In this document: positions 1,241 to 64,000 of the stretch, piece by piece | How positions within the stretch are numbered: the stretch's first letter is position 1 | Layout of the letters: each line of letters begins with the position of its first letter | Assembly (NCBI GenBank): GCA_043807255.1 | Contig: JAZDGD010000009.1 | Span: forward strand, 29,476 to 93,475 | Length of the DNA: 64,000 nt | Origin: Patescibacteria group bacterium | GTDB taxonomy: Bacteria > Patescibacteriota > Minisyncoccia > RBG-13-40-8-A | Direction of reading: 5' to 3' | Program-made: the position numbers and the translations under genes | The notes under the pieces: generated by a model | What the model was told of the DNA's origin: nothing | Database searches by the model: none | Seen by the model: only the letters and a program-made list of their open reading frames with translations

Positions 1241-1294
1241 AAATTTTTATATTTATACTGTTTTTATACTTATATGATAAGTATATCACAATAA

Positions 1295-1924: not shown

Positions 1925-1925
1925 A

Positions 1926-4939: not shown

Positions 4940-5137
4940 AATACCCGAGGTCTGACCTCGGGTATTTCTGTATCTTATGAGGCTAAGCCTCGTAAGATAT
5001 AATCCTGATATCGGGAGGTTCGACCTCTAACGCCCCCCCGCATCAACACTTAATATTGGGAGGTCGAACCTCTTATTATGTGGGACGTGCGACGTCCCAC
5101 ATAAATACGAAACATACGGAGAACTGTTCTCCGTATC
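4940..5137. repeat. Array of six different GC-rich hairpins in tandem
   Basis: Hairpins: cccgaggtctgacctcggg (4945), cttatgaggctaagcctcgtaag (4975), gggaggttcgacctc (5013), gggaggtcgaacctc (5058), gtgggacgtgcgacgtcccac (5080), atacggagaactgttctccgtat (5115). Confidence 0.6.
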
Positions 5138-6544: not shown

Positions 6545-7315
6545 TTACTTTTTCTTGGCTTTTTTTGTTACTTTTTTAGATTTTTTTTCTCCGACCTCGG
6601 TCCCGATCTTCATCGGGACAACGATTGGAGCGGGTGCGAAAACTCCAAATTGTTCAAGTAAAATTTCCGCTGCTCTATTAAATGCGTATTCTGGTTCAAC
6701 GCTACCGTCGGTTTCAATATCAATTTTAACTCTATTAAAATCGGTTTTATCTCCAACGCGCATATTCTCTACTTCATAATTAACCCTCTTTACTGGAGTA
6801 TAAATTGCATCTAAAGCAATTGCGCCAATTTCTAGTTTGTCTTTCTTTCTTTGTTCAACCGGAACATAACCTAACCCCGTCCCAATTTCAAGTTCCATTT
6901 CTAATTTTGCCTTAGCACTGGTGAGCGTTGCGATATGTGCATCTTTATTAACAACCTCAATTTCTGCGGTTGTTTTAATGTCTTTTGCCTTCACTTCTTT
7001 TTCTCCACTTGCCTTTAATTCTATTTTTATTGAAGGAATTTCTGCGTTTACCTTAAATCTTATTTGTTTTAAATTTAAAATTATTTGAATCACGTCTTCC
7101 AAAACATTGGGAATAGTAGAAAATTCATGACTTACTCCCTTAATCTTAACCGAAGTGATTGCAGCGCCAGACAAAGATGACAAAATCACTCTTCGAAAGG
7201 CGTTACCAATAGTTATGCCATAGCCGGGGTAACAATTATCTATTTCAAAAATTGCACGGTTATCGCCTTTTTTAATAACTTTCGGTTTTATTGGTAAAGA
7301 TATTTTGTGTTCCAT
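6545..7315 (-). CDS. rpoA: DNA-directed RNA polymerase alpha subunit, N-terminal domain only with a Lys-rich tail (no alpha-CTD)
   Basis: 256 aa with RpoA NTD motifs (GYGITIGNAFRRVLLSS-like). Ends in KKSKKVTKKAKKK. Bacterial RpoA is normally about 330 aa. Confidence 0.8.
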   Translation of the reverse strand: MEHKISLPIKPKVIKKGDNRAIFEIDNCYPGYGITIGNAFRRVILSSLSGAAITSVKIKGVSHEFSTIPNVLEDVIQIILNLKQIRFKVNAEIPSIKIELKASGEKEVKAKDIKTTAEIEVVNKDAHIATLTSAKAKLEMELEIGTGLGYVPVEQRKKDKLEIGAIALDAIYTPVKRVNYEVENMRVGDKTDFNRVKIDIETDGSVEPEYAFNRAAEILLEQFGVFAPAPIVVPMKIGTEVGEKKSKKVTKKAKKK

Positions 7316-7324
7316 ATAAATTAT

Positions 7325-7412
7325 TATTCAAATCTACAAATTGTTATGCGAATCTACGAATTATTCGTTGATTCGGATACAGATTCGTATCATTCGGATA
7401 ATGTATTAATTA
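7325..7412. repeat. Palindromic intergenic repeat, family 2 (rpoA leader); copies at 60245-60340 and, inverted, at 40935-41003
   Basis: Shared sequence cgaatctacaaatt..gcgaatctacgaattattcgttgattcggata...attcg.atcattcggataat. Confidence 0.6.
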
Positions 7413-7416
7413 AAAA

Positions 7417-8049
7417 TTATCTTGAATAAAATTCAATAATCATTGCTAGGTCAACCGGAAGTTCAACCTGTGCCCTGCCCGGAGCCCCATGAACAATTGC
7501 TTTAAATGTTTCACCCTCCTTGCTCTCAACTGAAAGCCATGACGGAATAGTTTGTTTTTTAATTTTTGCTTCCATGTCTTTAAATATGATCTTTTTTATA
7601 CTTTCTGGCCTGATTGCAATAACATCGCCCTTCTTAAGATGAATTGATGGAATGTCAACCCTTTTGTTGTTTAACAAAACATGACCATGGCTAACTATTT
7701 GTCTGGCCTTGGCCCTCGATCCGGCAATTCCTAATCTAAAAATAGCGTTATCTATTCTGGTTTCTAATTTTGCAATTAGAACATCGGGCACAACACCCTT
7801 TACCCTTGAAGCTTCTTCAAAATATTTTCTAAACTGTCTCTCGGTTATTCCATAAATTTTCTTAACTTTTTGTTTTTCAGCTAATTGAGCACCATATTCA
7901 GATAGAGCTGATTTATGTTTCTTTGCTTTCATGCCCGGAGGATATGGCTTTTTGATCATTGCGCACTTTACACTAAAACATCGCTCTTCTCGTAAAAAGA
8001 GTTTTTGCCCTGAACGTCTACATTTTTTACAAATTGGTCCTCTTAACAT
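7417..8049 (-). CDS. rpsD: 30S ribosomal protein S4
   Basis: 210 aa with the N-terminal Cys cluster and an S4 domain. Confidence 0.85.
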   Translation of the reverse strand: MLRGPICKKCRRSGQKLFLREERCFSVKCAMIKKPYPPGMKAKKHKSALSEYGAQLAEKQKVKKIYGITERQFRKYFEEASRVKGVVPDVLIAKLETRIDNAIFRLGIAGSRAKARQIVSHGHVLLNNKRVDIPSIHLKKGDVIAIRPESIKKIIFKDMEAKIKKQTIPSWLSVESKEGETFKAIVHGAPGRAQVELPVDLAMIIEFYSR

Positions 8050-12512: not shown

Positions 12513-12639
12513 GGTACTCTCCTTTTCGCTTTTTAGCGATAATTTAATGTATCAAATTAAAAAAATTTCGTCAAGCGTTTGCAAACACAAACACCACATA
12601 AATACCATAAACACTATATCAATATTATAAACATTCTTT

Positions 12640-12675
12640 GTTTCCATTTTTGTACGGCCGTAATAAAATGGAAAC
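12640..12675. repeat. Nested-palindrome repeat, family A, 3' copy (gtttccatttttgtacggccgtaataaaatggaaac)
   Basis: 11-bp outer stem enclosing a tacggccgta inner palindrome. Lies 30 nt downstream of the stop codon of 12706..13266. Confidence 0.7.
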
Positions 12676-12705
12676 AAAATTATCTGTTAAAAAACATGAA
12701 CTATG

Positions 12706-13266
12706 TTATTCGAATCTTACTTTTTTAACTAAAAGAAAATCTACAAAAGATTTTAAATTATATTGTTCAATCAATTCTTTGGTTTCTTTCTCTGTGTCAT
12801 ATTGGCAAACCCAAATACTTTGTTGCATTTTTTTATATCCTAAATATTTCAATCCCCTCCTAAACCAATCCCTGTCTTTTCGCCTACTTTCCGATATGTC
12901 AAATAAAACCATTTGCCACTTTCTGTCTTTTCTTAGGTTATTGTCTGTCAATTTTAATTTTGTGATAAATAATTTTTCGAAACCTTTTGATGTAATTATT
13001 ACGGCCGATTTATCCTTCGCTCTTAACGTTTTCAAATAACCACTACTTTTTAACTTACAAACCGTTCCAGCAAATCTTCTTTTGCTTTTTTCCCTTTCGC
13101 GTTTCTTTTTGTTTTCATTTGTCCACTCGTCTCTGAATGTATTGAAGTCGGAAAAACGCAACCCTCCTCTTTCGGGAATAATTTTGCCAATTACGTCTTT
13201 TGTTTTATTTTTGAAATTATATAAATCCCAAAGAAATTGTTCGGTAAATGGTAATTTAAGTCTCAT
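12706..13266 (-). CDS. Winged-helix / Cas2-VapD-like fusion protein (paralog 1)
   Basis: The C-terminal half, KWQMVLFDISESRRKDRDWFRRGLKYLGYKKMQQSIWVCQYD, matches the Cas2 core pattern (hVhhhYDI..RR..h...L...G.RhQxSVFxC). The N-terminal half, CKLKSSGYLKTL...VIITSKGFEKL, looks like a winged helix. Confidence 0.55.
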   Translation of the reverse strand: MRLKLPFTEQFLWDLYNFKNKTKDVIGKIIPERGGLRFSDFNTFRDEWTNENKKKREREKSKRRFAGTVCKLKSSGYLKTLRAKDKSAVIITSKGFEKLFITKLKLTDNNLRKDRKWQMVLFDISESRRKDRDWFRRGLKYLGYKKMQQSIWVCQYDTEKETKELIEQYNLKSFVDFLLVKKVRFE

Positions 13267-13278
13267 AGAATATTATTA

Positions 13279-13315
13279 TGTTTCTATTTTATTACGGCCG
13301 TAATAAAATAGAAAC
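13279..13315. repeat. Nested-palindrome repeat, family A, 5' copy (gtttctattttattacggccgtaataaaatagaaac)
   Basis: 13 nt upstream of the ATG of 12706..13266. Differs from the 3' copy by a compensatory C/G to T/A change that keeps the outer stem intact. Confidence 0.7.
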
Positions 13316-13396
13316 AATTTGAATTTAATAATTAAAATTAATAAATCCCATAATTAATAAACGATTAAATTTATAAATCTTTCGATTATTAAAATT

Positions 13397-20057: not shown

Positions 20058-20095
20058 ATTAGACCAATTAGGTTAATTAGAATAATTAGGTTAAT

Positions 20096-24150: not shown

Positions 24151-25532
24151 GATTATACAATACGCTAACCAGAAAAAAGGAAATTTTTAAACCCATTAAG
24201 AAGGGTTTTGTTGGTATTTATACTTGCGGGCCAACCGTTTATTCTTTTGCTCACATTGGGAATTTAAGAAGTTATGTTTTTGCTGATATTTTAAAAAGAA
24301 TTTTTATTTACAATAAATATAAAGTAAAACACGTAATCAATGTAACTGATGTTGGACATTTAACCTCTGATGCCGATGAAGGCGAAGATAAAATAGAAAA
24401 AGCGGCCTTGCGCGAAAATAAAAAAGCTGAAGATATCGCAAATTATTATTTTGGATTTTTCAAACGAGACCTAGAAAAACTTAATATTTTAAAACCAGAA
24501 ATTTATTGTAAGGCAACCGAACACATTAAAGAACAAATTGAGTTAATCAAAAAGCTTGAAAAAAAAGGATTTACTTATAAAACCTCTGATGGAATTTATT
24601 TTGATACATCTAAAATAAAAGACTACGGTAAGCTTGCACAATTAAAAAAAGAAGGGTTAATTGCTGGCAAGAGAATTGATTTTAAAGAAAAGAAAAATAT
24701 CACTGATTTTGCTTTATGGAAATTCTCCCCGCCTATCGGCGGGGCAAGCTTCTCTCTTAAGAGACAACAGGAATGGAAAAGTCCTTGGGGCGTTGGCTTT
24801 CCCGGCTGGCACATTGAATGCTCGGCAATGTCTATAAAATATCTCAGTGAACATTTTGATATTCATACTGGCGGGATTGACCACATTCCAATTCATCACA
24901 CCAACGAGATTGCCCAGTCCGAAGCAGCTACCGAAAAGAAATTCGTAAATTATTGGATACACGGCGAATTCCTTAATTTTAAAGGGAAAAAAGTTTCGAA
25001 ATCGAAAGGCGGGCTTTATACCGTTTCGGAGTTGCAAGAAAAAGGATTTAATCCCCTTGCATTTCGTTATTTAACATTTATCACTCATTATCGTGACCCA
25101 TTAAATTTTTCCCTAGAATCATTACAAAGCGCACAAGAATCATATAATCGATTAAAAAATATTATATGGGAGAACCGAGACAAAAGAACCAAAAAAGAGT
25201 ATTTGAAAGAATTTCAAAAAGCTATTAACGATGACTTAAATATGCCCAAGGCATTAAGCATTGTTTGGAAAATGGTACGAGACAAGAAACCCGCCCGCAA
25301 CGCCAGCAAGCTGTCTTGCTTGGCAGGCGAGGTGGACAAGGTTTTTGGATTGGATTTGTTAAAGAAAGAAAAGATAGAAATTTCTTCCGGCGTTGAGGAT
25401 TTAATCAAAGACCGCGAACAATCAAGAAAGAATAAGGACTGGCAAAAATCCGACGAGCTTCGTGACAAAATAAAATCCCTCGGTTATACCGTCGAAGACA
25501 CCCCCGAAGGACAAAAAATTAAGAAAATATAA
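24141..25532 (+). CDS. cysS: Cysteinyl-tRNA synthetase
   Basis: HIGN and KVSKSKG (KMSKS) motifs and the SPWG..GWHIECS zinc site. Confidence 0.9.
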
Positions 25533-26972: not shown

Positions 26973-27005
26973 CGTCTAATTATTCTAATTGATCTAATTA
27001 TTCTA

Positions 27006-27626
27006 ATGTTACCAAGATCCATACAAAATTTAATTGATGAGTTTGCCAAACTTCCATCAGTGGGGCCGAGACAAGCGGCTCGTTTTGTTTTTTATTTATT
27101 AAATGAGCCCAAAGAAGATATTGAAAAATTCGCTAAGAAATTATTTATCCTAAAAAAGATTAAACATTGTCATTTCTGTAATCGTGCAATCGAGCCCTCC
27201 TTCGCCAAGGCTACGGAGGGCAAGCCCGCCTTGTGTGATATTTGCAAGAACAAAGATAGAGACAGAAGTTTAATCTGTATTATAGAAAAAGACACCGACA
27301 TTGAATCAATTGAAAAAACTAAAAGATACGATGGCATTTATTATGTAATTGGAACCGAAGATGAAAATATCCAATTGAACCGACTCAAGGATTTAATCTC
27401 GCGAATTAAAAAATCCGAAAAGGAATTAAATGAAATTATTATTGCTACTGACGCCACAACTGAGGGCGAAACAATTGCCCTATATTCCGCAAGACAACTC
27501 GAGGAACTTAAAAAAACCTACCCAGGGCTTAAAATAACCCGCTTAGGACGCGGTTTATCCACTGGAGCAGAGTTAGAGTATATGGACGAAGATACGCTTT
27601 CCAACGCATTGTTGGGGAGAAAATAA
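27006..27626 (+). CDS. recR: Recombination protein RecR (zinc finger carries an inserted loop)
   Basis: C4 zinc finger CHFC...CDIC and a Toprim domain (IIIATDATTEGE). Confidence 0.8.
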   Translation: MLPRSIQNLIDEFAKLPSVGPRQAARFVFYLLNEPKEDIEKFAKKLFILKKIKHCHFCNRAIEPSFAKATEGKPALCDICKNKDRDRSLICIIEKDTDIESIEKTKRYDGIYYVIGTEDENIQLNRLKDLISRIKKSEKELNEIIIATDATTEGETIALYSARQLEELKKTYPGLKITRLGRGLSTGAELEYMDEDTLSNALLGRK

Positions 27627-30885: not shown

Positions 30886-30916
30886 AAATCTTACGAGGTT
30901 AAACCTCGTAAGATTT
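30886..30916. repeat. REP-like palindrome, copy 1 (aaatcttacgaggttaaacctcgtaagattt)
   Basis: Perfect 14-bp inverted repeat overlapping the transposase stop codon. Confidence 0.7.
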
Positions 30917-31610
30917 ATTCTAATGACAATTCTCTTGCGTCGTTTACTGCCATGTCCTTCAGCCATTTTTCTATATTTTGTTTGTATTTCCCATCTCCAC
31001 CAAACACTCCCAATAAAAATTCTCTATTTGTAATTGAAGGAAAGTTCTTTTTACCTGCGTAATCCAAATAACTAGACCAACGATAATTGCCTAAATATTC
31101 CATCGCTCCGTTATAATTATTTAGTTTTCTTGCTCGCCATTCCGGAAAACTGAGATCTAGTGGATTCAAATGAATATAATATGGAAGGTTTAAGAAATGA
31201 TTTTGTTTGTCGATTAAAATTGATTTATACGTACTCTGAAATAATGTTCCCCTTCTTTTGTATTTTTTATTGAATGACATCGTATAACCGGTTCCTAATT
31301 TTTGCATAAACCTAGAAATACCATTATCTTTTTTCTGTTTCAACAATAAATGATAATGATTTGGCATCAAACAAAATGCTAAAATTTCCACAAGCAATTT
31401 TCTCTCTTTAATCTTGCGAGGTTTAACCTCGTAAGATTCTAGGTCCATAGATTTATAATATATATTTTCTGCGGGTGCCTCATCGTTAAATTCATACAGA
31501 TCGTGAATAAAACGAAGATGGTCCTTGTCGTCTGCAAATATGTTTCTCTGTTCAACTCCGTGATTTAAAACGTGATAAATTTCATTATTTTCAAATTGTG
31601 GTTTTTTCAT
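30915..31610 (-). mobile_element. tnpA: IS200/IS605-type Y1 (HUH) transposase, REP-associated (RAYT-like)
   Basis: N-terminal YHVLNHGVEQRNIF, HUH motif PNHYHLLL, and catalytic Tyr context GTLFQSTYKSILID. Flanked by REP-like palindromes. Confidence 0.6.
31410..31438. repeat. REP-like palindrome, copy 2, inside the transposase CDS in-frame
   Basis: aatcttgcgaggtttaacctcgtaagatt, which encodes SYEVKPRKI. Confidence 0.65.
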
Positions 31611-31640: not shown

Positions 31641-31667
31641 GTTTACGAGGTTAAACCTCGTAAGATT
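31641..31667. repeat. REP-like palindrome, copy 3
   Basis: gtttacgaggttaaacctcgtaagatta. Confidence 0.7.
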
Positions 31668-31721
31668 AATTGTAACATAAAAATTGATATTTAGATATAA
31701 TTCTGCTATATTTTAACTAAC

Positions 31722-31794
31722 GGCCCCATCGTCTAGTGGCCCAGGACATCAGATTCTCATTCTGAAAACACCGGTTCAACTCCGGTTGGGGCTA
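31722..31794 (+). tRNA. tRNA-Glu (anticodon CTC)
   Basis: Hand-folded cloverleaf: acceptor GGCCCCA/TGGGGCT, anticodon loop TTCTCAT, T-loop TTCAACT. Confidence 0.7.
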
Positions 31795-31800
31795 AAACCA

Positions 31801-31833
31801 AAAATCTTACGAGGTTTAACCTCGTAAGATTTT
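31801..31833. repeat. REP-like palindrome, copy 4
   Basis: aaaatcttacgaggtttaacctcgtaagatttt. Confidence 0.7.
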
Positions 31834-31862
31834 ATAATACAACCGAATAATCAGAATTAAAA

Positions 31863-37486: not shown

Positions 37487-37607
37487 TCTAAATCTCCTTT
37501 TAATATAAATTTTATGGCTCTCTCCGACTTTTACGTCGTAGCTCGCCATAATTTCAAAGGACAAATACAATTCATATATACCATATCGCAAAAATCTTGT
37601 CAAATTA

Positions 37608-37648
37608 TTTCTTGTCGCCATTAGAACGCCATGGCGTAATTATGGCGT
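37608..37648. repeat. Nested-palindrome repeat, family B, 3' copy (tttcttgtcgccattagaacgccatggcgtaattatggcg)
   Basis: Inner perfect palindrome acgccatggcgt with an outer cgccat/atggcg stem. Lies 31 nt downstream of the stop codon of 37680..38255. Confidence 0.7.
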
Positions 37649-38268: not shown

Positions 38269-38310
38269 TTTCTTGTCGCCATTAGAACGCCATGGCGTAA
38301 ATACGGCGAC
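38269..38310. repeat. Nested-palindrome repeat, family B, 5' copy
   Basis: ctttcttgtcgccattagaacgccatggcgtaaatacggcgac, 14 nt upstream of the ATG. Confidence 0.7.
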
Positions 38311-38389
38311 AACAAATAAATAATTAACAATAGATCATAGAAACATAAATAAAAATAAAATAATAATTTAAATTAAAACTCAACAATAA

Positions 38390-40927
38390 TTATACTCCGC
38401 CACCGATTTCGCTTGCTTCAATTTTTACAAAATCACCACGTTTTAAGTCTTGTTCTAAAATTATTTTTGCAACCCGACTCTCAACTTCGTCTTGAATTGC
38501 CCTTCTCATCGGCCTTGCACCAAATTCTGGTTTATATCCAATTTTAACAATTTTCTCAATTAAATCAGGAGTTATTATTAATCTCACTCCCGTACCATCT
38601 AACAATCTCTTCGATAAATCGTTCATCATTAAAATCGCAATCTTAATTAAATGTTCGTGTGCCAATGGCCTAAATACCATAACCGCATCAAAACGATTTA
38701 AAAACTCTGCTCTAAATATTCCATCTTTCATTAAATAATCAACCAAATCATCTTTAAATGTTCGCAAATCTCTCCCCTGTCTTACGCATTGTCTAATTAA
38801 TTCTGCTCCGGCATTAGAGGTTCCAATAATTATTGATTCAGAAAAATTTATTTTTCTGCCAAAAGCATCAGTCAAGAATCCTTCATCCAAAACTTGTAAA
38901 AATAAATTCAAAATATTGGGATGAGCTTTTTCAATTTCATCCAAAAGAATAACTGAAAATGGATCATCCAAAACCGCTTTTGCCAAAAGCCCTGGTTCAT
39001 CTTTTTCTAAAGAACCAATTAAACGACTAATATTAGAAATTTCTTGATATTCGGACATATCGAATCTAATCATTTTCGTTTCTGATCCAAAATACGCTTC
39101 GGCCAATGCCTTAGCTGTTTCGGTTTTTCCAACTCCAGTTGGTCCAAGAAATAAAAAACTACCAATTGGTCTTTTATGAGATTTAATGCCCACCCTTGCC
39201 CTGCGCATTGCTTGAGCGATCGCCTTTACTGCCTCTTCCTGGTCAACTACTCGCCGATGTATTCTTTGTTCTAATTCTAAAAGTTTTTTCTTTTCATCTT
39301 CTTTAATCGCACCAATTGGGATCTCTACTCTTTCGGAAATAATTCGATTAACATATTCTGGAGGAATTATTTTTTCGCCTTTTTGCTTTGCATAAATTAG
39401 AACTTCGGTTAAAATATCAATTGCTTTTTGTGGAAATGGCTTGTCTTGTATGTAACGATCCGTCAATTGAACAATGTTTCTTAAAATTTTATAACTTACA
39501 GAAATGTCGTATTGTTTTTCAAATTTTGGCAACATGTCTTGAAGAACAAAAATCACCTGTTCTTGGGTTGGCATGTTCATTTCAACTTTCACAAATAAAT
39601 TTTTCACTGATGCATTATTTTCAATGTGTCTGTGCCAACCATCGAAGGTTGTCAGACCAATGATTTGAAAATTTGAAGAATTTAAATATGGCAATAAAAT
39701 CGAGGTAATATCTATGGTCCCCGGCCCCTTGTTAACACCTAAATAATTATGTATCTCGTCGACAATTAAAATTATATTCCCCGCGCTTACTGCTTCGGAA
39801 AAAATAATTCTTAATCTCTCTAATATTTTTCCCGGATCACTAATTCCAGCCAAAACTGCTTGCATATCCAACTCCAAGATTCTTTTATCGTTCAAATTTG
39901 AAAATGATCTACCTTCAATTACTTTTTTGGCAAATCCATATGCGACCGTTGATCTACCAGACCCCGACTCTCCAACCAATAAAACATTATTCTCTCCACT
40001 ACGAGATAAAATTCTTTCAATGGCATAAATTTCTTTTTGATGGCCAAGTAAGTGTATGGACAAGTCTTGCTTTTTAAAAACATCATTAATTTCAACACTG
40101 TAGTTATCTAAATTCACAGTGTAGCCAGCCGCCCAACGCTTGCCTACGCCCCTTTTACGCAATAAGTTTTCCAGTCTCCAAAATTGACTTTTTCTTCTTA
40201 TTTCGTTTTCAATATAATCTTCCCAAACCGCAACACGATCAACGTCTTCGGGATTCATTTCGTATTTAGACAGAATGTTTATAAAATTTTCATCTTCTTC
40301 TGCGGCTGCGATTAAAAAGTCTCTAATGTCAATGTTTCTGTGAAAATGAGAAATCGCTAATGTTGTGGCCCTTTTTAGGGTGGTAATAAATTTTTGTTCA
40401 TCAATATTGTCTTCAACGCTTTTTTTCATTTCCGTGATTAATTTTTCCCGAAACAAACCCTCATCCAGTCCTAATTTGGTAAAAATTTCTTTGCCTCGCG
40501 AATCGTTCCAAAAGTTACAAACAACTGCAAAAACATTTAATCCTCTTTTTTTTCTTTGACAAAATCTTATCGATTTTATAATTGCTCTCGCAACTCTAAA
40601 ATCCAAATATTCTGCCAAATTCACATCTTTTATCTTTTCTTCGGACAGTCTTTCTGCTAATGGTTTTTTAATTAAAAAGTTCTGACGCAAGGCATCAATA
40701 AACGCAACATAAATAATGCAAACAACAAAAAAACAAACGAAAATTATAAATAAAGCAAAATTCTGTTGCGTGTTCAATCCCAAAAGTCCTGGTTTGAAAA
40801 TTCCCAAGAAAAATATCAGTGCAATGACTATAAACACCATTCCCCAAATTCGTATAAATTTAAGAGGAAAGACTTTTTCCAATTGCACCGACCTATATAC
40901 AAGATTGTTTTTTTCTAAATCAAACAT
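38390..40927 (-). CDS. Clp/Hsp100-family double AAA+ ATPase with an N-terminal two-TM membrane anchor
   Basis: D2 Walker A GPTGVGKTE. D1 P-loop is GESGSGRST, with Arg in place of Lys. Clp N-domain-like repeats follow the TM segment. Confidence 0.7.
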   Translation of the reverse strand: MFDLEKNNLVYRSVQLEKVFPLKFIRIWGMVFIVIALIFFLGIFKPGLLGLNTQQNFALFIIFVCFFVVCIIYVAFIDALRQNFLIKKPLAERLSEEKIKDVNLAEYLDFRVARAIIKSIRFCQRKKRGLNVFAVVCNFWNDSRGKEIFTKLGLDEGLFREKLITEMKKSVEDNIDEQKFITTLKRATTLAISHFHRNIDIRDFLIAAAEEDENFINILSKYEMNPEDVDRVAVWEDYIENEIRRKSQFWRLENLLRKRGVGKRWAAGYTVNLDNYSVEINDVFKKQDLSIHLLGHQKEIYAIERILSRSGENNVLLVGESGSGRSTVAYGFAKKVIEGRSFSNLNDKRILELDMQAVLAGISDPGKILERLRIIFSEAVSAGNIILIVDEIHNYLGVNKGPGTIDITSILLPYLNSSNFQIIGLTTFDGWHRHIENNASVKNLFVKVEMNMPTQEQVIFVLQDMLPKFEKQYDISVSYKILRNIVQLTDRYIQDKPFPQKAIDILTEVLIYAKQKGEKIIPPEYVNRIISERVEIPIGAIKEDEKKKLLELEQRIHRRVVDQEEAVKAIAQAMRRARVGIKSHKRPIGSFLFLGPTGVGKTETAKALAEAYFGSETKMIRFDMSEYQEISNISRLIGSLEKDEPGLLAKAVLDDPFSVILLDEIEKAHPNILNLFLQVLDEGFLTDAFGRKINFSESIIIGTSNAGAELIRQCVRQGRDLRTFKDDLVDYLMKDGIFRAEFLNRFDAVMVFRPLAHEHLIKIAILMMNDLSKRLLDGTGVRLIITPDLIEKIVKIGYKPEFGARPMRRAIQDEVESRVAKIILEQDLKRGDFVKIEASEIGGGV

Positions 40928-40934
40928 AAGATAT

Positions 40935-41003
40935 TATTATTCGAATGATGCGAATTCTTATCCGAATCAACGAATTCGTAGATTCGGATATTTTATTTGT
41001 AGA
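40935..41003. repeat. Palindromic intergenic repeat, family 2, inverted copy (Clp ATPase leader)
   Basis: tatccgaatcaacgaattcgtagattcggata is a near-perfect 32-bp palindrome and the reverse complement of the 7325/60245 copies. Confidence 0.6.
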
Positions 41004-41378
41004 TTAGGATAATAAAATTATACTAAAAATTAAAAGCCCCAATATTAATAAGGGCAAAATAATCCACAAAATAAAGAATATTCCTCCAATAATAACCGTT
41101 AATACTAAATAAATAATCCCGACCAAAATTGTAAAAAATCTAATCAGAAAACCGGTTCCACGAGAAATCATATTGAATGCTAGATATTCAAAAAGTTTTT
41201 TAAAATCTAACCCCTGTGGTTTTTTTGTAATATCCCTTCTCCAGGGCGCAAATAGGGTTTTAAACAATAAGGGAATAGAAAAATAGCTTAAAGCAAAAAT
41301 AATAAAATTTCGCCAAGCGTCTAAAACGTTTCTCAGCGCCTCCCCGTAATACCATCTCCAAAACACCAAAACTATCAT
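41004..41378 (-). CDS. Small membrane protein, hypothetical
   Basis: 124 aa with three or four TM helices. Confidence 0.35.
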   Translation of the reverse strand: MIVLVFWRWYYGEALRNVLDAWRNFIIFALSYFSIPLLFKTLFAPWRRDITKKPQGLDFKKLFEYLAFNMISRGTGFLIRFFTILVGIIYLVLTVIIGGIFFILWIILPLLILGLLIFSIILLS

Positions 41379-43987: not shown

Positions 43988-44050
43988 GTTAATGTGAATG
44001 CAATGTTCCCTGCCCGCAACGCCAGCAAGCTGGCTTGCGTGGCGGGCGGG

Positions 44051-44734
44051 TTACCACAAATTCAGCTTGTTAATCAAAACGTCCTTATTCTCGTTAATCA
44101 AGTCTCTAACAAAACGGTCATACATATCATAACGATAATTAAATTCTTTTGCTGACATTGTGACAAAATTTAATTCCTTGCCTACCTCCGCTTCCAGGTC
44201 CTTGGAAAAAGTTGTTAATTTTCTTGTATTTATCTTGTCACCCACAATCAATAAATCCGCTCCGTCGGCTTCATTGTTTCTAAAAATTCCACCCAAAACC
44301 AAAAGCTTAACATTGCCAATTTTTCGTACATTATTAATCAATTCACCTTTTGAGGAAATTGTTGATTTTAAAATTAAGTCTTTTAATTCTTTCAAAAAGT
44401 CAAAATTATTATTCAAAGAATAAACTATTCTCCCCTGTTTTTTTCTGCTTTCAATCAGGCCAATTCTTTCTAATTTTTTAATTTCTTGTTTTACGGCAGA
44501 ATTATTCGTTCTTACCATTTTCAGAATTTCTCTAACCTGAAAGGCATCAACCGAATTTCTAAAAAAGAATTTCATCAATTTTACCTTTGCCAACGATTCA
44601 AATAACTGCTCTAATGTCCCCTTGCCTATTATGTTTTTGGCCTTTTGTCGGGATTTGTGCTTTAAAATTCGCTTCCTCGCCTTTTTGACGGGTTTTTTGG
44701 TCATTTTCTTGGTTTTCTTTATCTTCTTTTTCAT
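44051..44734 (-). CDS. Putative transcriptional regulator (Lys-rich N-terminus, wHTH, nucleotidyltransferase-like C-terminus)
   Basis: wHTH-like VREILKMVRTNNSAVKQEIKKLERIGLIE. C-terminal LGGIFRNNEADGADLLIVGD. Confidence 0.35.
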   Translation of the reverse strand: MKKKIKKTKKMTKKPVKKARKRILKHKSRQKAKNIIGKGTLEQLFESLAKVKLMKFFFRNSVDAFQVREILKMVRTNNSAVKQEIKKLERIGLIESRKKQGRIVYSLNNNFDFLKELKDLILKSTISSKGELINNVRKIGNVKLLVLGGIFRNNEADGADLLIVGDKINTRKLTTFSKDLEAEVGKELNFVTMSAKEFNYRYDMYDRFVRDLINENKDVLINKLNLW

Positions 44735-46951: not shown

Positions 46952-47359
46952 CTATTTAAGCTCTACGGTGGCTCCAACGCCTTCTAACCTTGTTTTTAAC
47001 TCTTCTGCATCTTCTTTCTTAAGATTTTCCTTAATAACTTTCGGAGCCGCGTCAACAATTGCTTTTGATTCCTTTAATCCAAGCCCAGAAATTTCACCGA
47101 TGATTTTAATAACCTGAATCTTTTGATCTCCAGCTGATTTTAATTCGACATTAAAAGCTGTTTTTTCAACTTCGACGCTCGCTTCTGGCGAGGTCGGAGT
47201 CCCGACTCCCGCGGACGTCGGGATTGCCGCACTAACTCCAAATTTTTCTTCTAAAACTTTAACAAGTTCAGACAAATCCATAACAGTCATTTTTTCAATT
47301 TCATCAACTAATTTTTTGAATTTTTCTGGAACCTTTACGTCCTTGTTTTTTTCAGTCAT
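46952..47359 (-). CDS. rplL: 50S ribosomal protein L7/L12
   Basis: Ala/Glu-rich and L12-like. Confidence 0.85.
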   Translation of the reverse strand: MTEKNKDVKVPEKFKKLVDEIEKMTVMDLSELVKVLEEKFGVSAAIPTSAGVGTPTSPEASVEVEKTAFNVELKSAGDQKIQVIKIIGEISGLGLKESKAIVDAAPKVIKENLKKEDAEELKTRLEGVGATVELK

Positions 47360-47364
47360 CTTAT

Positions 47365-47455
47365 TATGATGCCAATCTACTAATCTTATGCCAATCTACA
47401 GACTGCGAATTCGCAGTTCGCATAATTGGCATTAAATTCGCATATTCGCATTATG
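47365..47455. repeat. 90-bp palindromic leader repeat, family 1 (rplL leader); near-identical copy at 62985-63075 in the rplK leader
   Basis: gccaatctactaatcttatgccaatctacagactgcgaattcgcagttcgcataattggcat... Confidence 0.7.
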
Positions 47456-47966
47456 ATTTATTGCTTATCGCACTTAATACTCCAATCAAATTCCTTAAAT
47501 TGCCCTGCAATACGTTTGCAAAACCACTGATTGGACTCTTTATTGAACCAACTAATTTGGCCAATAAAATTTCTCGAGAAGGAATTTTTGATAACTCTTT
47601 AATTTCTAATGCCGACAAAACTCTGCCTTCAACCATACCGCCTAAAATTTTAAATTTATCATTGGTTTTGGCTAGCTTAGTAAGAACCTTGATTAAAGAT
47701 ATCGGATCGCCATATCCAAAACTTGATGCCAAAGAACCACTAAATTCTGACAAATCCATTTCTTTGCCTTCTTTTTTGAGAGCCAATTTCATTAAAGTTT
47801 TCTTCGCAACTCTATATTCCCCTTCTAGTTTTCGAAGTTCTTTTCGAATAATTTGAATGTCTTTAACCTTAACCCCTTTGGCGTCGGTAAAAATCAAAGA
47901 TTTCTGGCGTTTAATTTTGTCAGCTAACTCCTCTACAATTTCCTGTTTTTGTTTTTTTGTTAACAT
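47451..47966 (-). CDS. rplJ: 50S ribosomal protein L10
   Basis: MLTKKQKQEIVEELADKIK... The listed ORF is extended 23 codons upstream. Confidence 0.8.
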   Translation of the reverse strand: MLTKKQKQEIVEELADKIKRQKSLIFTDAKGVKVKDIQIIRKELRKLEGEYRVAKKTLMKLALKKEGKEMDLSEFSGSLASSFGYGDPISLIKVLTKLAKTNDKFKILGGMVEGRVLSALEIKELSKIPSREILLAKLVGSIKSPISGFANVLQGNLRNLIGVLSAISNKS

Positions 47967-48158
47967 TGTTTTTTTAATTAAAAATCTGCGACCTTTCCGC
48001 AGACAAACCTCTAAACTTATGGATATTAAACCCACAAATTTTCAGTCTCGACAGGATTTAAGCTTTCGCAACCTGTTGTCTACGACCATCTAATTATGCA
48101 TTAATAGTATTACAATTTTAAACCGTTGTCAAGCTTGCCCGCCTCTGACGAGATACCC

Positions 48159-49132: not shown

Positions 49133-49203
49133 CAGGCCCGGGAGGAATTGAACCCCCGACTAAGATTTTGGAGATCTTCGTGATACCACTTCACCACGAG
49201 CCT
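49133..49203 (-). tRNA. tRNA-Trp (anticodon CCA)
   Basis: Hand-folded. Anticodon loop CTCCAAA. Confidence 0.65.
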
Positions 49204-49209
49204 AATTTC

Positions 49210-49368
49210 CTATTTTTTTGTTTCCTTATGAATCGTGTTTTTTCTGCACCATTTGCAGAACTTGCTCAACTGCAATTTTTCCTCAACAGTTTTTTTATTT
49301 CTGCGAGTAAAATGGTTGACGCGCTTACACTTTTCACAAGCTAATTTTACCGTAAAATCTTTTTTCAT
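49210..49368 (-). CDS. rpmG: 50S ribosomal protein L33
   Basis: MKKDFTVKLACEKCKRVNHFTRRNKKTVEEKLQLSKFCKWCRKNTIHKETKK. The longer listed ORF runs over tRNA genes. Confidence 0.8.
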   Translation of the reverse strand: MKKDFTVKLACEKCKRVNHFTRRNKKTVEEKLQLSKFCKWCRKNTIHKETKK

Positions 49369-49394
49369 ATATTTGTTTTTATTTTTATTATTTT

Positions 49395-49470
49395 TGGAGC
49401 CAAGATCGGGAATCGAACCCGAGACCTTCCCCTTACCATGGGGATGCTCTGCCAGCTGAGCTATCTTGGC
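49395..49470 (-). tRNA. tRNA-Thr (anticodon GGT), CCA encoded
   Basis: Hand-folded. Confidence 0.65.
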
Positions 49471-49511
49471 ATTGTGGGCCTGCCCACCGAAGCTCCGCGG
49501 TGCGGAGCGAA

Positions 49512-49595
49512 GGTGGGAGCGGGTGGACTCGAACCACCGAAGCCGTGAGGCGACAGATTTACAGTCTGTTGCAATAGCCGCTATGCGACGCTCCC
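49512..49595 (-). tRNA. tRNA-Tyr (anticodon GTA), long variable arm
   Basis: Hand-folded. Anticodon loop CTGTAAA. Confidence 0.65.
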
Positions 49596-49600
49596 TCAAA

Positions 49601-49672
49601 AGCCGACGGGGTGAATCGAACACCCGACAAATAGTTTACAAAACTATTGCTCTACCACTGAGCTACATCGGC
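49601..49672 (-). tRNA. tRNA-Thr (anticodon TGT)
   Basis: Hand-folded. Anticodon loop TTTGTAA. Confidence 0.65.
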
Positions 49673-58731: not shown

Positions 58732-58770
58732 ATGTTTGTGAATTAAAAATTAAAAGTCAAAAATTAAAAG

Positions 58771-59142
58771 TTATTTTCCCCTCATCGTCCTAACACTAGA
58801 AGCTAAAATGTTTGCTAACTCAATTAATTCTTTCAATAATTCGTTAATTTCATTTTTGTCGCCCTTATTCGCGTCTCGTAACAGTGCCAACCAAAACTTT
58901 GATTCATTTGCAGACTTTAGGGCATAACTTAAAAAATTTACAAATTCTTTTTTAGAGCTTCCGGCTATTGCTTCAACATAATTAGCGCCAATACTTGTGC
59001 CACACCGCATAAGTTGATTATCAGCGGTTTTACATAAAGTATCTGTTTTCGATAAGGTGTCTAAAAATTTTATTAATCTCAATATCCAATTATAAATCCT
59101 TCTTTTTAATTCCTCGCTAAATTTTTTATTATCTTGTGACAT
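58771..59142 (-). CDS. Four-helix-bundle protein (23S rRNA intervening-sequence protein family)
   Basis: RCGTSIGANYVEAIAGSSKKEF..FLSYALKSANE matches the family signature. Confidence 0.55.
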   Translation of the reverse strand: MSQDNKKFSEELKRRIYNWILRLIKFLDTLSKTDTLCKTADNQLMRCGTSIGANYVEAIAGSSKKEFVNFLSYALKSANESKFWLALLRDANKGDKNEINELLKELIELANILASSVRTMRGK

Positions 59143-59197
59143 TTTAATTATTAAATTTAATACTGCAACTTTAAACTTTTGATTTTTAACTTTAAAC

Positions 59198-60229
59198 TCA
59201 CTTAATAAGTTTTCCGCTTTTAATTACATGTTCAACCAAAGTTGATGAATAACCCCATTCATTATCGTACCAGGCCATAACTTTTACTAAATCGCCATCA
59301 ATAACTTTTGTAAATCCCAAATCAACAATAGCAGCGGTAGTAATGCCAATAAAATCCGAGGAAACCAATTGTTCACTAGTTACACCTAAAATCCCTTTCC
59401 AGTGTGGTTTTTTAGATGCCTCAATTAAAATATTATTAATTTCCTCAACTGAAGTTTTTCGGTTGGCTACAAAAGTTATGTCCGCCAAAGAAACCGTTGG
59501 CACCGGAGTCCTGATTGCTAGACCATCAAATACGCCTTTTAAGTTTTTTACAACCTTCGTAACTGTAATCGCTGCTCCCGTAGAAGACGGAACCAAACTA
59601 ATTGCTCCCGCCCTGCCCCTGCGCCAATCCTTCGCATCTGGACCATCAACAATTTTTTGCGTTGCCGTATAAGCATGGGTTGTATTTAAGACTGCCTTTT
59701 TTATCCCTGGATTTTCTGATAAAACCGCCATCACCGGTGCAACTGCATTGGTTGTGCAAGAACCGTTAGAAGTAATGTTTACTCGCGACATATCTTTTTC
59801 ATTAATCCCTAAAAGCACGGTTCCGCCAAGCTTAAAGCTCTCGTCGTCGTCTTTTGATGGCGCAGTGATTACCACTCTCTTGGCTCCAGCTTTTATGTGC
59901 GCAGAACTTCCCTCAAAAGAATCAAAAAATCCTGTTGCCTCAACAACCACATCTATTCCCAATCTTGCCCATGGCAATTTTATTGGATCTTTTTCTTGAA
60001 AAAAATCAATTTTTTGATTATCAATAATTAATTTTTTTTGCTTTAAATCAACACTAACCCTGTGGTCATATGCACCATAAACGCTATCGTGTTTTAAAAG
60101 ATAGGCCAAATTTTCTAAATCAGCCAAATCATTAATTGCCACGATTCTTAAATCGTTTCGTTCATGGGCTATCCTTAAAAAACTTCGACCAATTCTCCCA
60201 AATCCACTTATTGCTACTTTCGTAAACAT
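59198..60229 (-). CDS. gap: Glyceraldehyde-3-phosphate dehydrogenase
   Basis: NGFGRIGR and SCTTN motifs. Confidence 0.9.
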   Translation of the reverse strand: MFTKVAISGFGRIGRSFLRIAHERNDLRIVAINDLADLENLAYLLKHDSVYGAYDHRVSVDLKQKKLIIDNQKIDFFQEKDPIKLPWARLGIDVVVEATGFFDSFEGSSAHIKAGAKRVVITAPSKDDDESFKLGGTVLLGINEKDMSRVNITSNGSCTTNAVAPVMAVLSENPGIKKAVLNTTHAYTATQKIVDGPDAKDWRRGRAGAISLVPSSTGAAITVTKVVKNLKGVFDGLAIRTPVPTVSLADITFVANRKTSVEEINNILIEASKKPHWKGILGVTSEQLVSSDFIGITTAAIVDLGFTKVIDGDLVKVMAWYDNEWGYSSTLVEHVIKSGKLIK

Positions 60230-60244
60230 ACAATTAAATATTCG

Positions 60245-60340
60245 AATCTACAAATTAGTATACGAATCTACGAATAATTCGTTGATTCGGATAAATATTC
60301 GCATCATTCGGATAATATTACTTATATTGTAATTATACCA
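60245..60340. repeat. Palindromic intergenic repeat, family 2 (gap leader)
   Basis: cgaatctacaaattagtatacgaatctacgaataattcgttgattcggataaatattcgcatcattcggataat. Confidence 0.6.
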
Positions 60341-61422: not shown

Positions 61423-62331
61423 TTATTTTTTATTATTTAAAAATTTAAACACCTCCAATGTTGCAATTGCGCCTTCAGAGACAGCCGTAACAACTTGTCG
61501 GAAATTATTGGAATTAGTTGTAATGTCTCCGGCGGCAAAAATTCCAGAAACATTTGTTTTTTGTGCTTCGTCCACTTTAATAAAACCAAATTCATTGGTT
61601 ACAATGCCCAGATCTTGTAATAAAACGGTATTTGGCACTGAACCCGCTTCAATAATTAAACCGCTTGCCTCTAATTTTTTGCCATTGTCTAAAATAACTT
61701 CTTCTAACCAATCTTTTCCATTTACCTCTGTAACATTGGCATTGTAAATTATTTCCACATTTTTTAATTCCCCAACTCTCTTGGTCCATAAATCGTCTGC
61801 CCTTAATTTATCTTTTCTGTAAATTAAATAAATTTTTTCTGCTTCTTCGGCAAGCATGACCGCACCCATCACTGCCGAATTTGCACCGCCAACAATGGCG
61901 ATATTTTTGTGTTTAAATAAAGAGACACAGTTTTGTGAGCAATAACTCACTCCTTTTTGTTCAAATTTTTCTACGTTTTTAATTTCTAATTTTTTAGTTT
62001 CCGTGCCAATTGCTAAAATAATTGATTTCGCTTGATACTCCTCTTTTTCGGAAACAATTTTAAATCCATCATCAATTTTGGCAACTTGATTAACTCTGGT
62101 TTGTTCAAAATTAACTTTTAAATGTTCCAGATGTTCATAAAATTTTCCGGCCAATTCCTTACCATTTACTCCGAATATTCCTGGATAATTTTCTACTTTA
62201 TAGGCAGTATTAATAAGTCCGCCAGAAACTTCGCCAAGAACCAAAGAATTTATGCCGAAATTCTTAGCATAAATACCCGCCGAAACCCCCGCCGGCCCGG
62301 CACCAACAATAATTAAATCATAATTTTTCAT
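61423..62331 (-). CDS. Thioredoxin reductase-like FAD/NAD(P)-binding oxidoreductase
   Basis: [11 protein letters not shown] and a second GxGxxA motif. The redox-active Cys pair is CSQNC rather than the canonical CATC. Confidence 0.65.
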
Positions 62332-62557: not shown

Positions 62558-62980
62558 TTATTCAATGTTTATGCCCATATTCTTTGCCGTTCCTTCGATG
62601 ATTTTCATTGCTGCTTCGATGTCATTGGCATTTAGGTCTTCCATTTTTGTTTCTGCAATTTGTCTTACCTGTTCTCTGGTAACTTTTCCAACTTTGTCTT
62701 TTTGTGGAACCCCAGACCCCTTTTCAATTCCTGCTGCTTTTTTTAATAAATCAGCTGCTGGTGGAGTTTTTAATACAAAGCTAAAGGTTCTATCTGTAAA
62801 AATTGTAATTTCCGCTGGAATTACATTTCCCATTTTATCTTTTGTTGCTTCATTAAATTTTCCACAAAAATCTTGAAGGTTTAATCCGTGTGGACCTAAA
62901 ACCGTACCCACTGGTGGAGCTGGTGTAGCGCCTCCGGCGGGAAGTTGAATTTTAATAATTGTCTTTATTTCTTTTGCCAT
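62558..62980 (-). CDS. rplK: 50S ribosomal protein L11
   Basis: [23 protein letters not shown]. Confidence 0.9.
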
Positions 62981-62984
62981 AATA

Positions 62985-63075
62985 ATTATTATAATGCCAA
63001 TCTACTAATCTTATGCCAATCTACAGACTGCGAATTCGCAGTTCGCAATATTGGCATTAAGTTCGCATATTCGCA
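62985..63075. repeat. 90-bp palindromic leader repeat, family 1 (rplK leader copy)
   Basis: About 90% identical to 47365-47455. Confidence 0.7.
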
Positions 63076-63621
63076 TTATATCTTTTTGACTTGTAGGAAA
63101 TCCAACTCTACTGGAGTTTCCCGTCCAAACATATTTACTAAAACTTTAATTTTACCTTTGCCATGATCAACTTCGCTGATTTTGCCTTCCATGTCCTTAA
63201 ATGGCCCATCGGCAATTTTCACAATATCGCCAACCTCAACATCAATTTTATAAACTGGCTCATCTTTGGTTTCTGCTTTTAATATTTTTGTAATTTCCTC
63301 ATCAGAAACTGGAACCGGCGTAATCCCCGAACCAATAAAACCCGTTACTCTTGGCGTATTTCTAACCACATACCAGGAATCATCGGTCACAATCATGTCT
63401 ACAAAAACATAGTTTGGAAAAAATTTCTCTTCAATTATTTGTCTTTTTCCGCCCTTTATTTTTATCTTTTTTTCCTTGGGAACCACAATATTAAAAATTT
63501 TATCACCCATTCCCAACGACTCAATTCTTTGTTTCAAATTAAAAGCAACCGTATCTTCTGATGCAGGATAGGTATGAATTGCATACCAGTGTCTTTCCCC
63601 CGTTGTTTCTTGCTTTGGCAT
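63076..63621 (-). CDS. nusG: Transcription antitermination factor NusG
   Basis: NGN domain (WYAIHTY) and KOW domain. Confidence 0.85.
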   Translation of the reverse strand: MPKQETTGERHWYAIHTYPASEDTVAFNLKQRIESLGMGDKIFNIVVPKEKKIKIKGGKRQIIEEKFFPNYVFVDMIVTDDSWYVVRNTPRVTGFIGSGITPVPVSDEEITKILKAETKDEPVYKIDVEVGDIVKIADGPFKDMEGKISEVDHGKGKIKVLVNMFGRETPVELDFLQVKKI

Positions 63622-63830
63622 TATAACAAAAATTTACTAACTAAAAATGTAAACAAAAAATCTAGACCACCCAAAAAAATCGCAACAACCAAACTTAACC
63701 CGATAACAATTAGGGTATATTTTATGGTTTCTTGCTTGGTGGGCATATTTACTTTCTTAATTTCCACCTTAACCTCTTTTAAATAATTCGTTAATTTGCT
63801 TAAAATGCTCATGGTTTTTAAAATGGCCAA
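63621..63830 (-). CDS. secE: Preprotein translocase subunit SecE
   Basis: 69 aa with a single TM helix. Conserved secE-nusG-rplK order. Confidence 0.7.
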   Translation of the reverse strand: MAILKTMSILSKLTNYLKEVKVEIKKVNMPTKQETIKYTLIVIGLSLVVAIFLGGLDFLFTFLVSKFLL

Positions 63831-64000
63831 AGGCCATCTTAATTACAAGTTTATTATAAAATAATTCCCGTGTCAATAATTATTTATAACTATCTCTTTC
63901 GTAATTTGAATTAAAAAAATTTAATGATTTTGTTCATATTTGAAGATGTCAGAGGTCATACCTCAGACATCTATATTTTTAAGACTGTAAACTAAATTCA

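Follow-up and report, generated by a model that had tools for sequence, protein, structure and literature searches.

The subject of this report is a pair of near-identical palindromes that lie directly upstream of the ribosomal-protein genes rplL and rplK in a 64,000-nucleotide (nt) stretch of Patescibacteria contig JAZDGD010000009.1, referred to below as the window. We consider it likely that they are two of at least five window copies of a dispersed palindromic word-repeat element, widespread in Patescibacteria (the candidate phyla radiation, CPR), and that they represent the gene-less form, akin to a MITE (a miniature transposable element with inverted repeats), of a small selfish element. 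Because the repeat is scattered among many unrelated CPR genes and matches the flanks of a nuclease-bearing element, the two copies are most likely selfish DNA and not a switch for stalk-protein control. The evidence lies in a repeat family divided into sub-families, its turnover at orthologous sites, its indifferent placement and orientation, a nuclease gene nested within longer copies, and the co-variation of nuclease clade with arm word. The copies in the window, numbered E1 to E5, are the following.

7326-7399, minus strand: E1, CCGAAT/CGNAT sub-family, between rpsD (7417-8049) and rpoA (6545-7315)
40939-41010, plus strand: E2, CCGAAT sub-family, oriented opposite to the others, with the 3' end of the open reading frame (ORF) 41004-41378 on one side and the clpB-like gene 38390-40927 starting on the other
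47369-47451, minus strand: E3, GGCAT/GCCAAT sub-family, palindromic and gene-less, between rplJ and rplL
60240-60313, minus strand: E4, CCGAAT sub-family, between icd and gap, in the 5' untranslated region (UTR) of gap (59198-60229)
62994-63076, minus strand: E5, gene-less palindromic element of the GGCAT/GCCAAT sub-family, between nusG and rplK

A repeat search of the 64-kb window combined with pairwise alignment identified 47361-47463 and 62986-63088 as a 103-nt repeat pair with 92% identity, a likeness far above chance. A first-pass annotation, made from the sequence, had described stretches at 47365-47455 and 62985-63075 as about 90% identical, and its positions were right. The inverted repeat that it noted is also present, with the palindrome centre CGAATTCG at 47406-47413 and 63031-63038; as for the direct repeats, GCCAATCTA does occur twice in each copy, whereas ATTCGCAT occurs twice only in the first (at 47436 and 47444), the second having a single exact occurrence (63069). 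Read in the direction of the genes, both copies run TAATGCGAAT ATGCGAAT .. ATGCCAAT .. CTGCGAATTCGCAG .. GTAGATTGGCAT AAGATTA GTAGATTGGCAT. As single strands, each folds into one long, imperfect hairpin of about 38 bp, with energies of -35.8 kcal/mol (z = -6.0) for the rplL copy and -38.5 kcal/mol (z = -7.3) for the rplK copy; none of 200 shuffles matched the fold stability of either.

Both copies are fitted closely between their neighbors. E3 shares its first base with the rplJ stop codon, TAA (47453-47451), and the rplL ATG lies 9 nt past its last base; likewise, E5 shares its first base with the nusG stop codon, and the rplK ATG follows 13 nt past the last. A check for target-site duplications found 4-nt direct repeats at these two copies, CATA at 47452-47455 and 47365-47368 (read on the minus strand) for E3 and TATA at 63077-63080 and 62990-62993 for E5, and none that was clear at E1, E4, a copy upstream of gap in a relative (locus L119) or a copy at locus L134.

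The 12-mer GTAGATTNNNAT occurs 10 times in the window, as compared to 0.68 times expected by chance, and all occurrences are paired, 19-21 nt apart, defining the five elements. Three of these (at rpsD/rpoA, the clpB-like gene and icd/gap) were found by seeking further copies, as the first-pass annotation had suggested, and they have the same two-arm architecture. The repeated unit, ATTYGTAGATTNGNAT, is about 16 nt long and is present twice per arm, although it can equally be read as four ATTNG/CNAAT pentamers; the arms join at a short central palindrome, giving an element of about 75-85 nt. Units recur with a period of 18 nt in 34 cases, of 19 nt in 79 and of 20 nt in 16. E1, E2 and E4 form a second sub-family, in which the words CCGAAT/ATTCGG replace GCCAAT/ATTGGC; E1 and E4 are 87% identical according to the repeat search. 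Each of the five elements occupies its whole intergenic spacer, and long hairpin folds were obtained for all five. Upstream of E4, at 60340-60332, there is an extended -10 box, TGGTATAAT, that is conserved. In being short (five copies of 72-83 nt in 64 kb), non-coding, multicopy and built of inverted arms, the elements resemble MITEs, and several near-identical copies were also found within other genomes, e.g., at loci L050, L057 and L064.

Distribution was assessed by scanning one genome per species for the double unit, GTAGATTNGNAT-N5-11-GTAGATTNGNAT. The double unit was present at at least 118 loci, against about 8 expected by chance by our own estimate for 20 fixed bases. Nearly all of the listed loci carry CPR labels, with some 20 lineage names: Saccharibacteria, Roizman-, Collier-, Moran-, Uhr-, Buchanan-, Staskawicz-, Sung-, Magasanik-, Falkow-, Doudna-, Yanofsky-, Kaiser-, Wolfe-, Vogel-, Nomura-, Lipton-, Portnoy- and Peribacteria. 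Chance matches or mislabelled bins probably account for a few of the listed loci. On viral contigs there were six matches. A complete element is a palindrome in which each arm has two units, and a few copies from Moranbacteria (L019, L023, L048 and L062) are single-armed. Spacer bases are common to the copies within one genome and different between genomes.

Among the 135 matches listed, orientation with respect to the genes is random: 43 point with both flanking genes and 41 against both. A further 15 lie in convergent and 10 in divergent spacers, 11 are called inside ORFs (mostly chance matches or ORF over-calls) and 15 have one flanking gene uncalled at the edge of the locus. The resulting split among spacers (77% co-directional, 14% convergent, 9% divergent) may be compared with that for all spacers of the same loci (73%, 13.5% and 13.4%). 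Genes starting beside an arm are diverse, among them those for S18 (three times), L12, S4, L2, SecY, GroEL, an EF-Tu-like GTPase and FtsZ, as well as MreB, MraZ, SSB, a topoisomerase, tRNA synthetases and ABC transporters. When the genes downstream of the listed matches were reviewed for a regulon, none was seen. The boxes of ArgR, PurR, LexA, CIRCE and MraZ were considered as candidates and rejected, since none fits the word or the spacing and the downstream genes are unrelated. At locus L090 (about 385-445, minus strand), a GTAGATT double unit ends about 13 nt before what appears by eye to be the 5' end of a tRNA (GCGGGGTAGAGCAGCC...), so the element seems to abut non-coding genes too. In the literature that we searched, the coverage of which was incomplete, we found no description of this element or of the association with GxxExxY proteins reported below.

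Comparison with related genomes, also proposed in the first-pass annotation, attested to a rapid turnover. The L12 protein of the window is identical to one from a metagenome-assembled genome labelled "Patescibacteria group bacterium". The nearest homologues of the L11 and L12 proteins come from genomes named Portnoybacteria or Paceibacterota, and the corresponding loci lack the element between nusG and rplK in L119, L123 and L121, and between rplJ and rplL in L137 and L139. Site by site, the situation is as follows.

nusG|rplK: E5 in the window; in relatives, the genes are 1 nt apart (L119), 3 nt apart (L123) or 44 nt apart with a different, CTAATT repeat (L121)
rplJ|rplL: E3 in the window; an orthologous copy in L138 (same contig as L119), none in L137 (12-nt spacer) or L139 (25-nt spacer)
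secE|nusG: none in the window; a CCGAAT-type copy only in L121 and L122
gap 5' UTR: E4, of CCGAAT type, in the window; a GGCAT-type copy in L119, an unrelated palindromic word repeat in L121 and L122, a plain 35-nt A-rich leader in L123

All four sites thus differ between relatives in the presence or absence of the element, as is expected of MITEs. Upstream of gap, the extended -10 box (GTGATATAAT or TGGTATAAT, consensus TGnTATAAT) is kept in four of four genomes, and it is the sequence after the box that varies. The unrelated repeat behind the same conserved promoter in L121 and L122 (14585-14712 in L122) is about 110 nt long and uses the words ATGTTTGA/TCAAACAT and CGCTTCGCT/AGCGA. Elsewhere, a metagenome scan located exact copies of the GGCAT sub-family upstream of ssb, dnaJ, nusA and gap, and L119 has an additional copy of this sub-family between rpsB and tsf. 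Near secE-nusG-rplK, the relatives L119 (1-1091) and L121 (4234-6200) also carry a reverse transcriptase gene (RVT_1) adjoining a bAvd-like gene, a pairing typical of diversity-generating retroelements.

In some copies the two arms are far apart. Left and right arm units were separated by 400-1400 nt at five loci, and at four of them (L012, L014, L107 and L098) a PF13366 gene lies between the arms; at the fifth, L055, there is merely rplB-rpsS between two separate elements. The inter-arm gene, of about 400 bp and in either orientation, encodes a protein of about 130 amino acids that belongs to PF13366 (PDDEXK_3) in Pfam and to GxxExxY (TIGR04256) in NCBIfam. The D...ExK motif is intact in the GxxExxY proteins, which have the PD-(D/E)XK nuclease fold with the catalytic residues kept. 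A tblastn search over all fetched loci retrieved 12 PF13366 genes, every one of which is bracketed by inverted arrays of short words: seven arrays are of the GTAGATT type, and the other five use GCGAAA, ACTGATT, ACAGAT, CTCGAAT and ACAAAT. The proteins with GTAGATT arms share 44-62% identity with one another and 22-38% with those having other words, i.e., nuclease clade co-varies with arm word. As an independent check, four homologues were picked by protein similarity alone (61-69% identity), and all four turned out to have the same arms, at operon sites such as atpD|atpC, argS|ileS and scpA|scpB. When the ORF is removed, the arms of the long form align colinearly with E3 and E5, and the position of the ORF corresponds to the centre of the window copies, CTGCGA|ATTCGCAG. 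The function of the PF13366 family was listed as unknown in the source paper of Pfam (PMC3424549), and a sequence search of the PDB with the nuclease gave no significant match.

Two further loci with GxxExxY genes deserve mention. On plasmid pTS1 of Treponema saccharophilum (L148), an annotated GxxExxY gene lies within a 16-nt inverted repeat, CACGGATTCG / CGAATCCGTG, at 561-576 and 1006-1021, whose core resembles the CPR word GATTCG; the nuclease-in-arms pattern may therefore reach beyond CPR. At L108 (CAYJUW010000067.1, about 720-2355, minus strand), a GxxExxY coding sequence, its arms made of the CTCGAAT word, shares its reading frame with a long ORF. The remainder of that ORF looks by eye like an amidotransferase (GatB-like; unconfirmed), and the ORF includes a second stretch resembling a translated word repeat (FENNSGAFEKDS). 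In some cases, then, such elements may lie within genes, like the palindromic elements of Rickettsia.

In other CPR genomes a GxxExxY gene is sited exactly at the palindrome centre, between arms of the same kind in unchanged order, and we therefore read the window copies as gene-less, non-autonomous (MITE-like) forms. The first-pass annotation had offered as its alternative a mobile palindrome present in the two leaders by coincidence, and it is this alternative that is favored by presence/absence, sub-family turnover at one site, CPR-wide spread and the nuclease-bearing long form. As to mechanism, the GxxExxY nuclease would recognize the words in the arms and promote copying of the element by break-and-repair, i.e., by homing or gene conversion, and gene-less copies might be carried along in trans. 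Once inserted, the element would be co-transcribed with its neighbors (at gap, downstream of the conserved promoter), and the hairpin could fold away, so that the stop codon upstream of it again meets the start codon downstream; RNase III may also cut the hairpin. As a neutral passenger of this kind, the element would, we infer, be tolerated between tightly packed genes devoid of Shine-Dalgarno sequences, even those formerly 1-3 nt apart, because it folds in this way.

More broadly, and only tentatively, we propose that the GxxExxY proteins (PF13366/TIGR04256), a large family, serve as nucleases for one type of small selfish element, in which a gene of about 400 bp is nested at the centre of a palindrome with arms made of word arrays, and that each nuclease clade recognizes a word of its own. 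Their gene-less palindromes would be non-autonomous derivatives found throughout CPR spacers, including those of ribosomal and ATP-synthase operons, and might be tolerated in genomes poor in Shine-Dalgarno sequences through a hairpin that re-joins the neighboring stop and start codons.

Several points weigh against the selfish-element interpretation. By tblastn, no GxxExxY gene was found in the 64-kb window or in the loci of the relatives, so that mobilization in trans in this genome is only a proposal. As duplications flank E3 and E5 but not E1, E4 or the copies of L119 and L134, cut-and-paste transposition is only a candidate mechanism, and PD-(D/E)XK proteins of 130 amino acids are not known to act as transposases. 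A nuclease gene that homes into pre-existing palindromes would account for the nesting just as well. Single-armed copies occur in some Moranbacteria, and conservation of the 12-mer core over a whole superphylum is unusual for a selfish repeat and could reflect a conserved host protein. Finally, the neighbors seem enriched in highly expressed genes (ribosomal proteins, rpoA, gap, groEL, tuf-like), which may indicate selection for function.

A rival explanation is a selected RNA element. The hairpin could be a site of RNase III processing ("punctuation") or an mRNA stabilizer, uncoupling neighboring cistrons. This idea accords with the stable hairpins of about 38 bp, with the location of elements within transcription units (gap 5' UTR, rplJ-rplL, rpsD-rpoA), with the retention of RNase III in CPR (PMC12641178) and with an architecture analogous to the stem-plus-ORF of 23S rRNA intervening sequences; a PF05635 gene with inverted arms is present in the window. 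Nevertheless, the strand carrying GTAGATT folds better whatever the direction of the genes (29:14 for sense copies, 31:10 for antisense). The better-folding strand follows the motif and not transcription, hence there is no sign of selection on the transcript; G·U asymmetry, which we had considered as evidence of RNA function, was discarded on the same grounds as an ascertainment effect. Moreover, single-arm copies exist, RNase III has no need of a conserved 12-mer, and presence/absence among close relatives speaks against an essential role. When eight copies were given to RNAalifold, the recurring words threw it out of register and no shared structure emerged. On balance, a selected RNA element seems unlikely.

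A portable, outward-facing promoter is a second conceivable function. Unit 1 would supply a -35-like TTGGCA, the end of unit 2 and the flank would supply TG plus a -10-like hexamer, and a leaderless mRNA would start from the ATG. Shine-Dalgarno sequences are few at the gene starts of the window, and at many of these starts TGnTATAAT lies 5-8 nt ahead of the ATG, a pattern that suggests widespread leaderless or near-leaderless mRNAs in this organism and is congenial to such a promoter. So too are the unit periods given above, as 18, 19 and 20 nt amount to spacers of 16, 17 and 18 nt, and the consideration that an insertion between the once-coupled nusG and rplK would demand a new means of expressing rplK. 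By the sigma-70 geometry (16-18 nt spacer, at a gene start), E3 fits (TTGGCA-17-(TG)CATCAT-6 nt-ATG) and E5 fits roughly (TTGGCA-17-(TG)CATTAT), with outward-facing sites on both arms. In the whole data set, however, this geometry passes at only 3 of 42 element-adjacent gene starts and fails at the other 39. One in two of the exact arms is directed at a gene's 3' end, copies lie in convergent spacers as often as the background, in four genomes gap is served by a conserved promoter of its own upstream of the element site, and the A2 of the putative -10 hexamer is not conserved in the family. Consequently, we regard the promoter as quite unlikely; outward promoter activity is possible for E3, but it is not a property of the family.

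The palindromes might instead be immobile arrays of binding sites for a conserved host DNA-binding protein (a nucleoid protein or global regulator), which nuclease genes use as a landing pad. Consistent with this, the core GTAGATTNGNAT is kept across about 20 CPR lineages among the matches listed, the pentamers recur about once per helical turn, single-arm copies adjoin stop codons, and there is the apparent enrichment in highly expressed neighbors. Contact by a host protein would not explain why the non-contact spacers are near-identical too within a genome, nor why the copies form sub-families. It also fits poorly with the fast gain, loss and replacement at orthologous sites, and with a nuclease clade that co-varies with the arm word even when the words are quite different (GCGAAA, ACTGATT, ACAGAT, CTCGAAT). 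We find this explanation distinctly improbable.

Very improbable is a family of repetitive extragenic palindromic (REP) sequences or REPINs, moved by a RAYT (Y1/HUH) transposase via a GTAG tag. The likeness is real: as in REP/REPIN systems, the elements are extragenic and palindromic with an invariant GTAG (GTAG/CTAC in every unit), inverted doublets form larger hairpins between co-directional and convergent genes, sub-families show complementary changes, and there is a tie to a single small nuclease-type gene flanked by the repeats (PMC3733652). However, a REP has an unpaired GTAG and its own stem-loop of 6-13 bp, in a GC-rich unit of 20-40 nt (PMC3733652). The present unit fails this definition because it has no stem-loop of its own, its GTAG being paired with the CTAC of the other arm inside the long hairpin. 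The gene found between the arms is, moreover, of the PF13366/TIGR04256 family (GxxExxY, PD-(D/E)XK) and not a Y1/HUH transposase, although no systematic search for Y1_Tnp was made.

The other explanation offered in the first-pass annotation was a lineage-specific regulatory or processing element of the stalk-protein genes. To judge it, the following features are needed, the protein-coding genes having been assigned by Pfam.

46952-47359, minus strand: rplL
47451-48035, minus strand: rplJ ORF (true start ATG 47966)
47970-48103, minus strand: classical L10 leader, outside the repeat family (Rfam RF00557, full model length, E = 1.7e-5; its 40.9 bits fall just under the gathering score of 44)
62558-62980, minus strand: rplK
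63076-63621, minus strand: nusG
63621-63830, minus strand: secE

The claim that a classical L10 leader was not recognizable proved wrong. The RF00557 match upstream of rplJ is accompanied by a promoter (TTGACA-17-TACTAT, 48132-48104) and by an attenuator-type terminator hairpin with a T-run at 48004-47984, and its sequence is conserved in three relatives (L137-L139); the operon therefore already has an autoregulatory leader of its own. The real start of rplJ is the ATG at 47966, giving 171 amino acids as in the relatives, and the longest ORF, from the GTG at 48035, is an over-call. As for the element itself, Rfam scans of the whole window at the gathering score, and around E5 at E <= 10, matched it to no family, including the L10 and L1 leader models. 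Terminator scanning of E3 and E5 found no GC-rich stem followed by a T-run, the only terminator-like site being that in the L10 leader. The absence of rplA after rplK was correctly noted: the next gene (61423-62331) encodes a pyridine-nucleotide-disulphide oxidoreductase according to Pfam, and rplA does not follow rplK in the loci of the relatives either. Loss of L1 is a recognized trait of some CPR bacteria (bioRxiv 10.1101/2022.01.07.475337; PMC5220378).

That L10-L12 or L11 binds the hairpin RNA as a shared autoregulatory or processing leader, controlling rplL and rplK, is hardly credible: near-identical copies do lie directly upstream of both genes, L1 and its leader are absent, and one other scanned genome has a family member upstream of its L7/L12 gene, but copies occur at other intergenic sites, both in the window (rpoA, clpB-like, gap) and, for the sub-family, elsewhere (ssb, dnaJ, nusA, tsf, gap), close relatives lack the element at nusG|rplK and rplJ|rplL, there is no Rfam match, and rplJ keeps its full-length L10 leader with promoter and terminator. 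Such a spread of copies is the outcome that the first-pass annotation had named as refuting the regulatory reading, which we reject. On our interpretation, the element plays no specific part in regulating L10/L12 or L11.

Other repeats were observed in the same window. A separate five-copy family consists of perfect small palindromes, TTACGAGGTT(A/T)AACCTCGTAAGATT, at 4975-5007, 30891-30923, 31414-31446, 31643-31675 and 31807-31839, several of them flanking the tRNA gene at 31722-31794. Intergenic hairpin repeats in two copies each were seen at 37605-37647 / 38269-38319, 12638-12703 / 13252-13317, 25288-25329 / 44009-44052 and 2902-2942 / 63939-63979, their words being CGCCAT/ATGGCG, TGTTTCCATTTT...AAAATGGAAACA, the GC-rich CCCGCCCGCAACGCCAGCAAGC, and ATGTCAGAGGTCATACCTCTGACAT; the genome thus holds several palindromic repeat families built on different words. 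Repeats of CTAATT / AATTAG words occupy the spacers 20058-20089 and 26976-27007 of the window, and also 9957-10000 of L121. Four tRNA genes are clustered at 49133-49672 (minus strand), between yceG and the next operon, and spurious ORFs were called over 49210-49623.

In practical terms, the palindromes at rplL and rplK should not be annotated as ribosomal leaders, the real L10 leader being upstream of rplJ. For the question of the stalk-protein genes the outcome is deflationary, i.e., ordinary repeat DNA. Wider interest attaches to a palindromic repeat with a conserved 12-mer that spans about 20 CPR lineages and is tied to a family of small nucleases whose function is listed as unknown. If the link is causal, it would give a role to thousands of GxxExxY proteins, would account for a class of intergenic "word-repeat" sequences that recurs in CPR genomes and would provide a marker of recent genome dynamics in organisms not yet cultured. 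A further question is how genes lacking a Shine-Dalgarno sequence keep their expression once 90 nt have been inserted between the preceding stop codon and their own start.

Among known systems, Correia/NEMIS elements of Neisseria and the MITEs ERIC, RUP and BOX are about 100 nt long, mostly with inverted arms, and occur in many copies beside genes, with which they are co-transcribed; the RNA hairpins of Correia elements are cut by RNase III, and such MITEs sometimes carry parts of outward promoters. The CPR element resembles them in size, inverted arms, copy number, proximity to genes, long RNA hairpin and presence/absence between strains. Unlike them, it has no sequence similarity to these families, its arms are tandem 16-nt units made of 5-8-nt words, there is no clear TA duplication, the core is conserved over a superphylum and not a genus, and the longer relative encodes a PD-(D/E)XK nuclease instead of a DDE transposase.

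The long form also recalls the intervening sequences of 23S rRNA (PF05635), in which a small ORF of about 120-130 amino acids lies in the loop of a long inverted-repeat stem within a transcribed region, although the protein family is another and the sites are here between protein-coding genes, not in rRNA. The window has a PF05635 gene of its own (123 amino acids, 58771-59142, minus strand) between gap and rpiB, in the stretch 58743-59196. Its 23-nt inverted arms of AAAAGT words (58750-58772 / 59174-59196, 87% complementary) give a layout like that of the GxxExxY elements, and L121 has a PF05635 gene at the same place. Lastly, homing endonucleases of the I-Ssp6803I type, free-standing or intron-borne, are PD-(D/E)XK enzymes of selfish insertions, which have a palindromic target and spread by break-and-repair. 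By analogy, the long form, with its small PD-(D/E)XK nuclease at a palindromic site, may be a selfish insertion of comparable kind.

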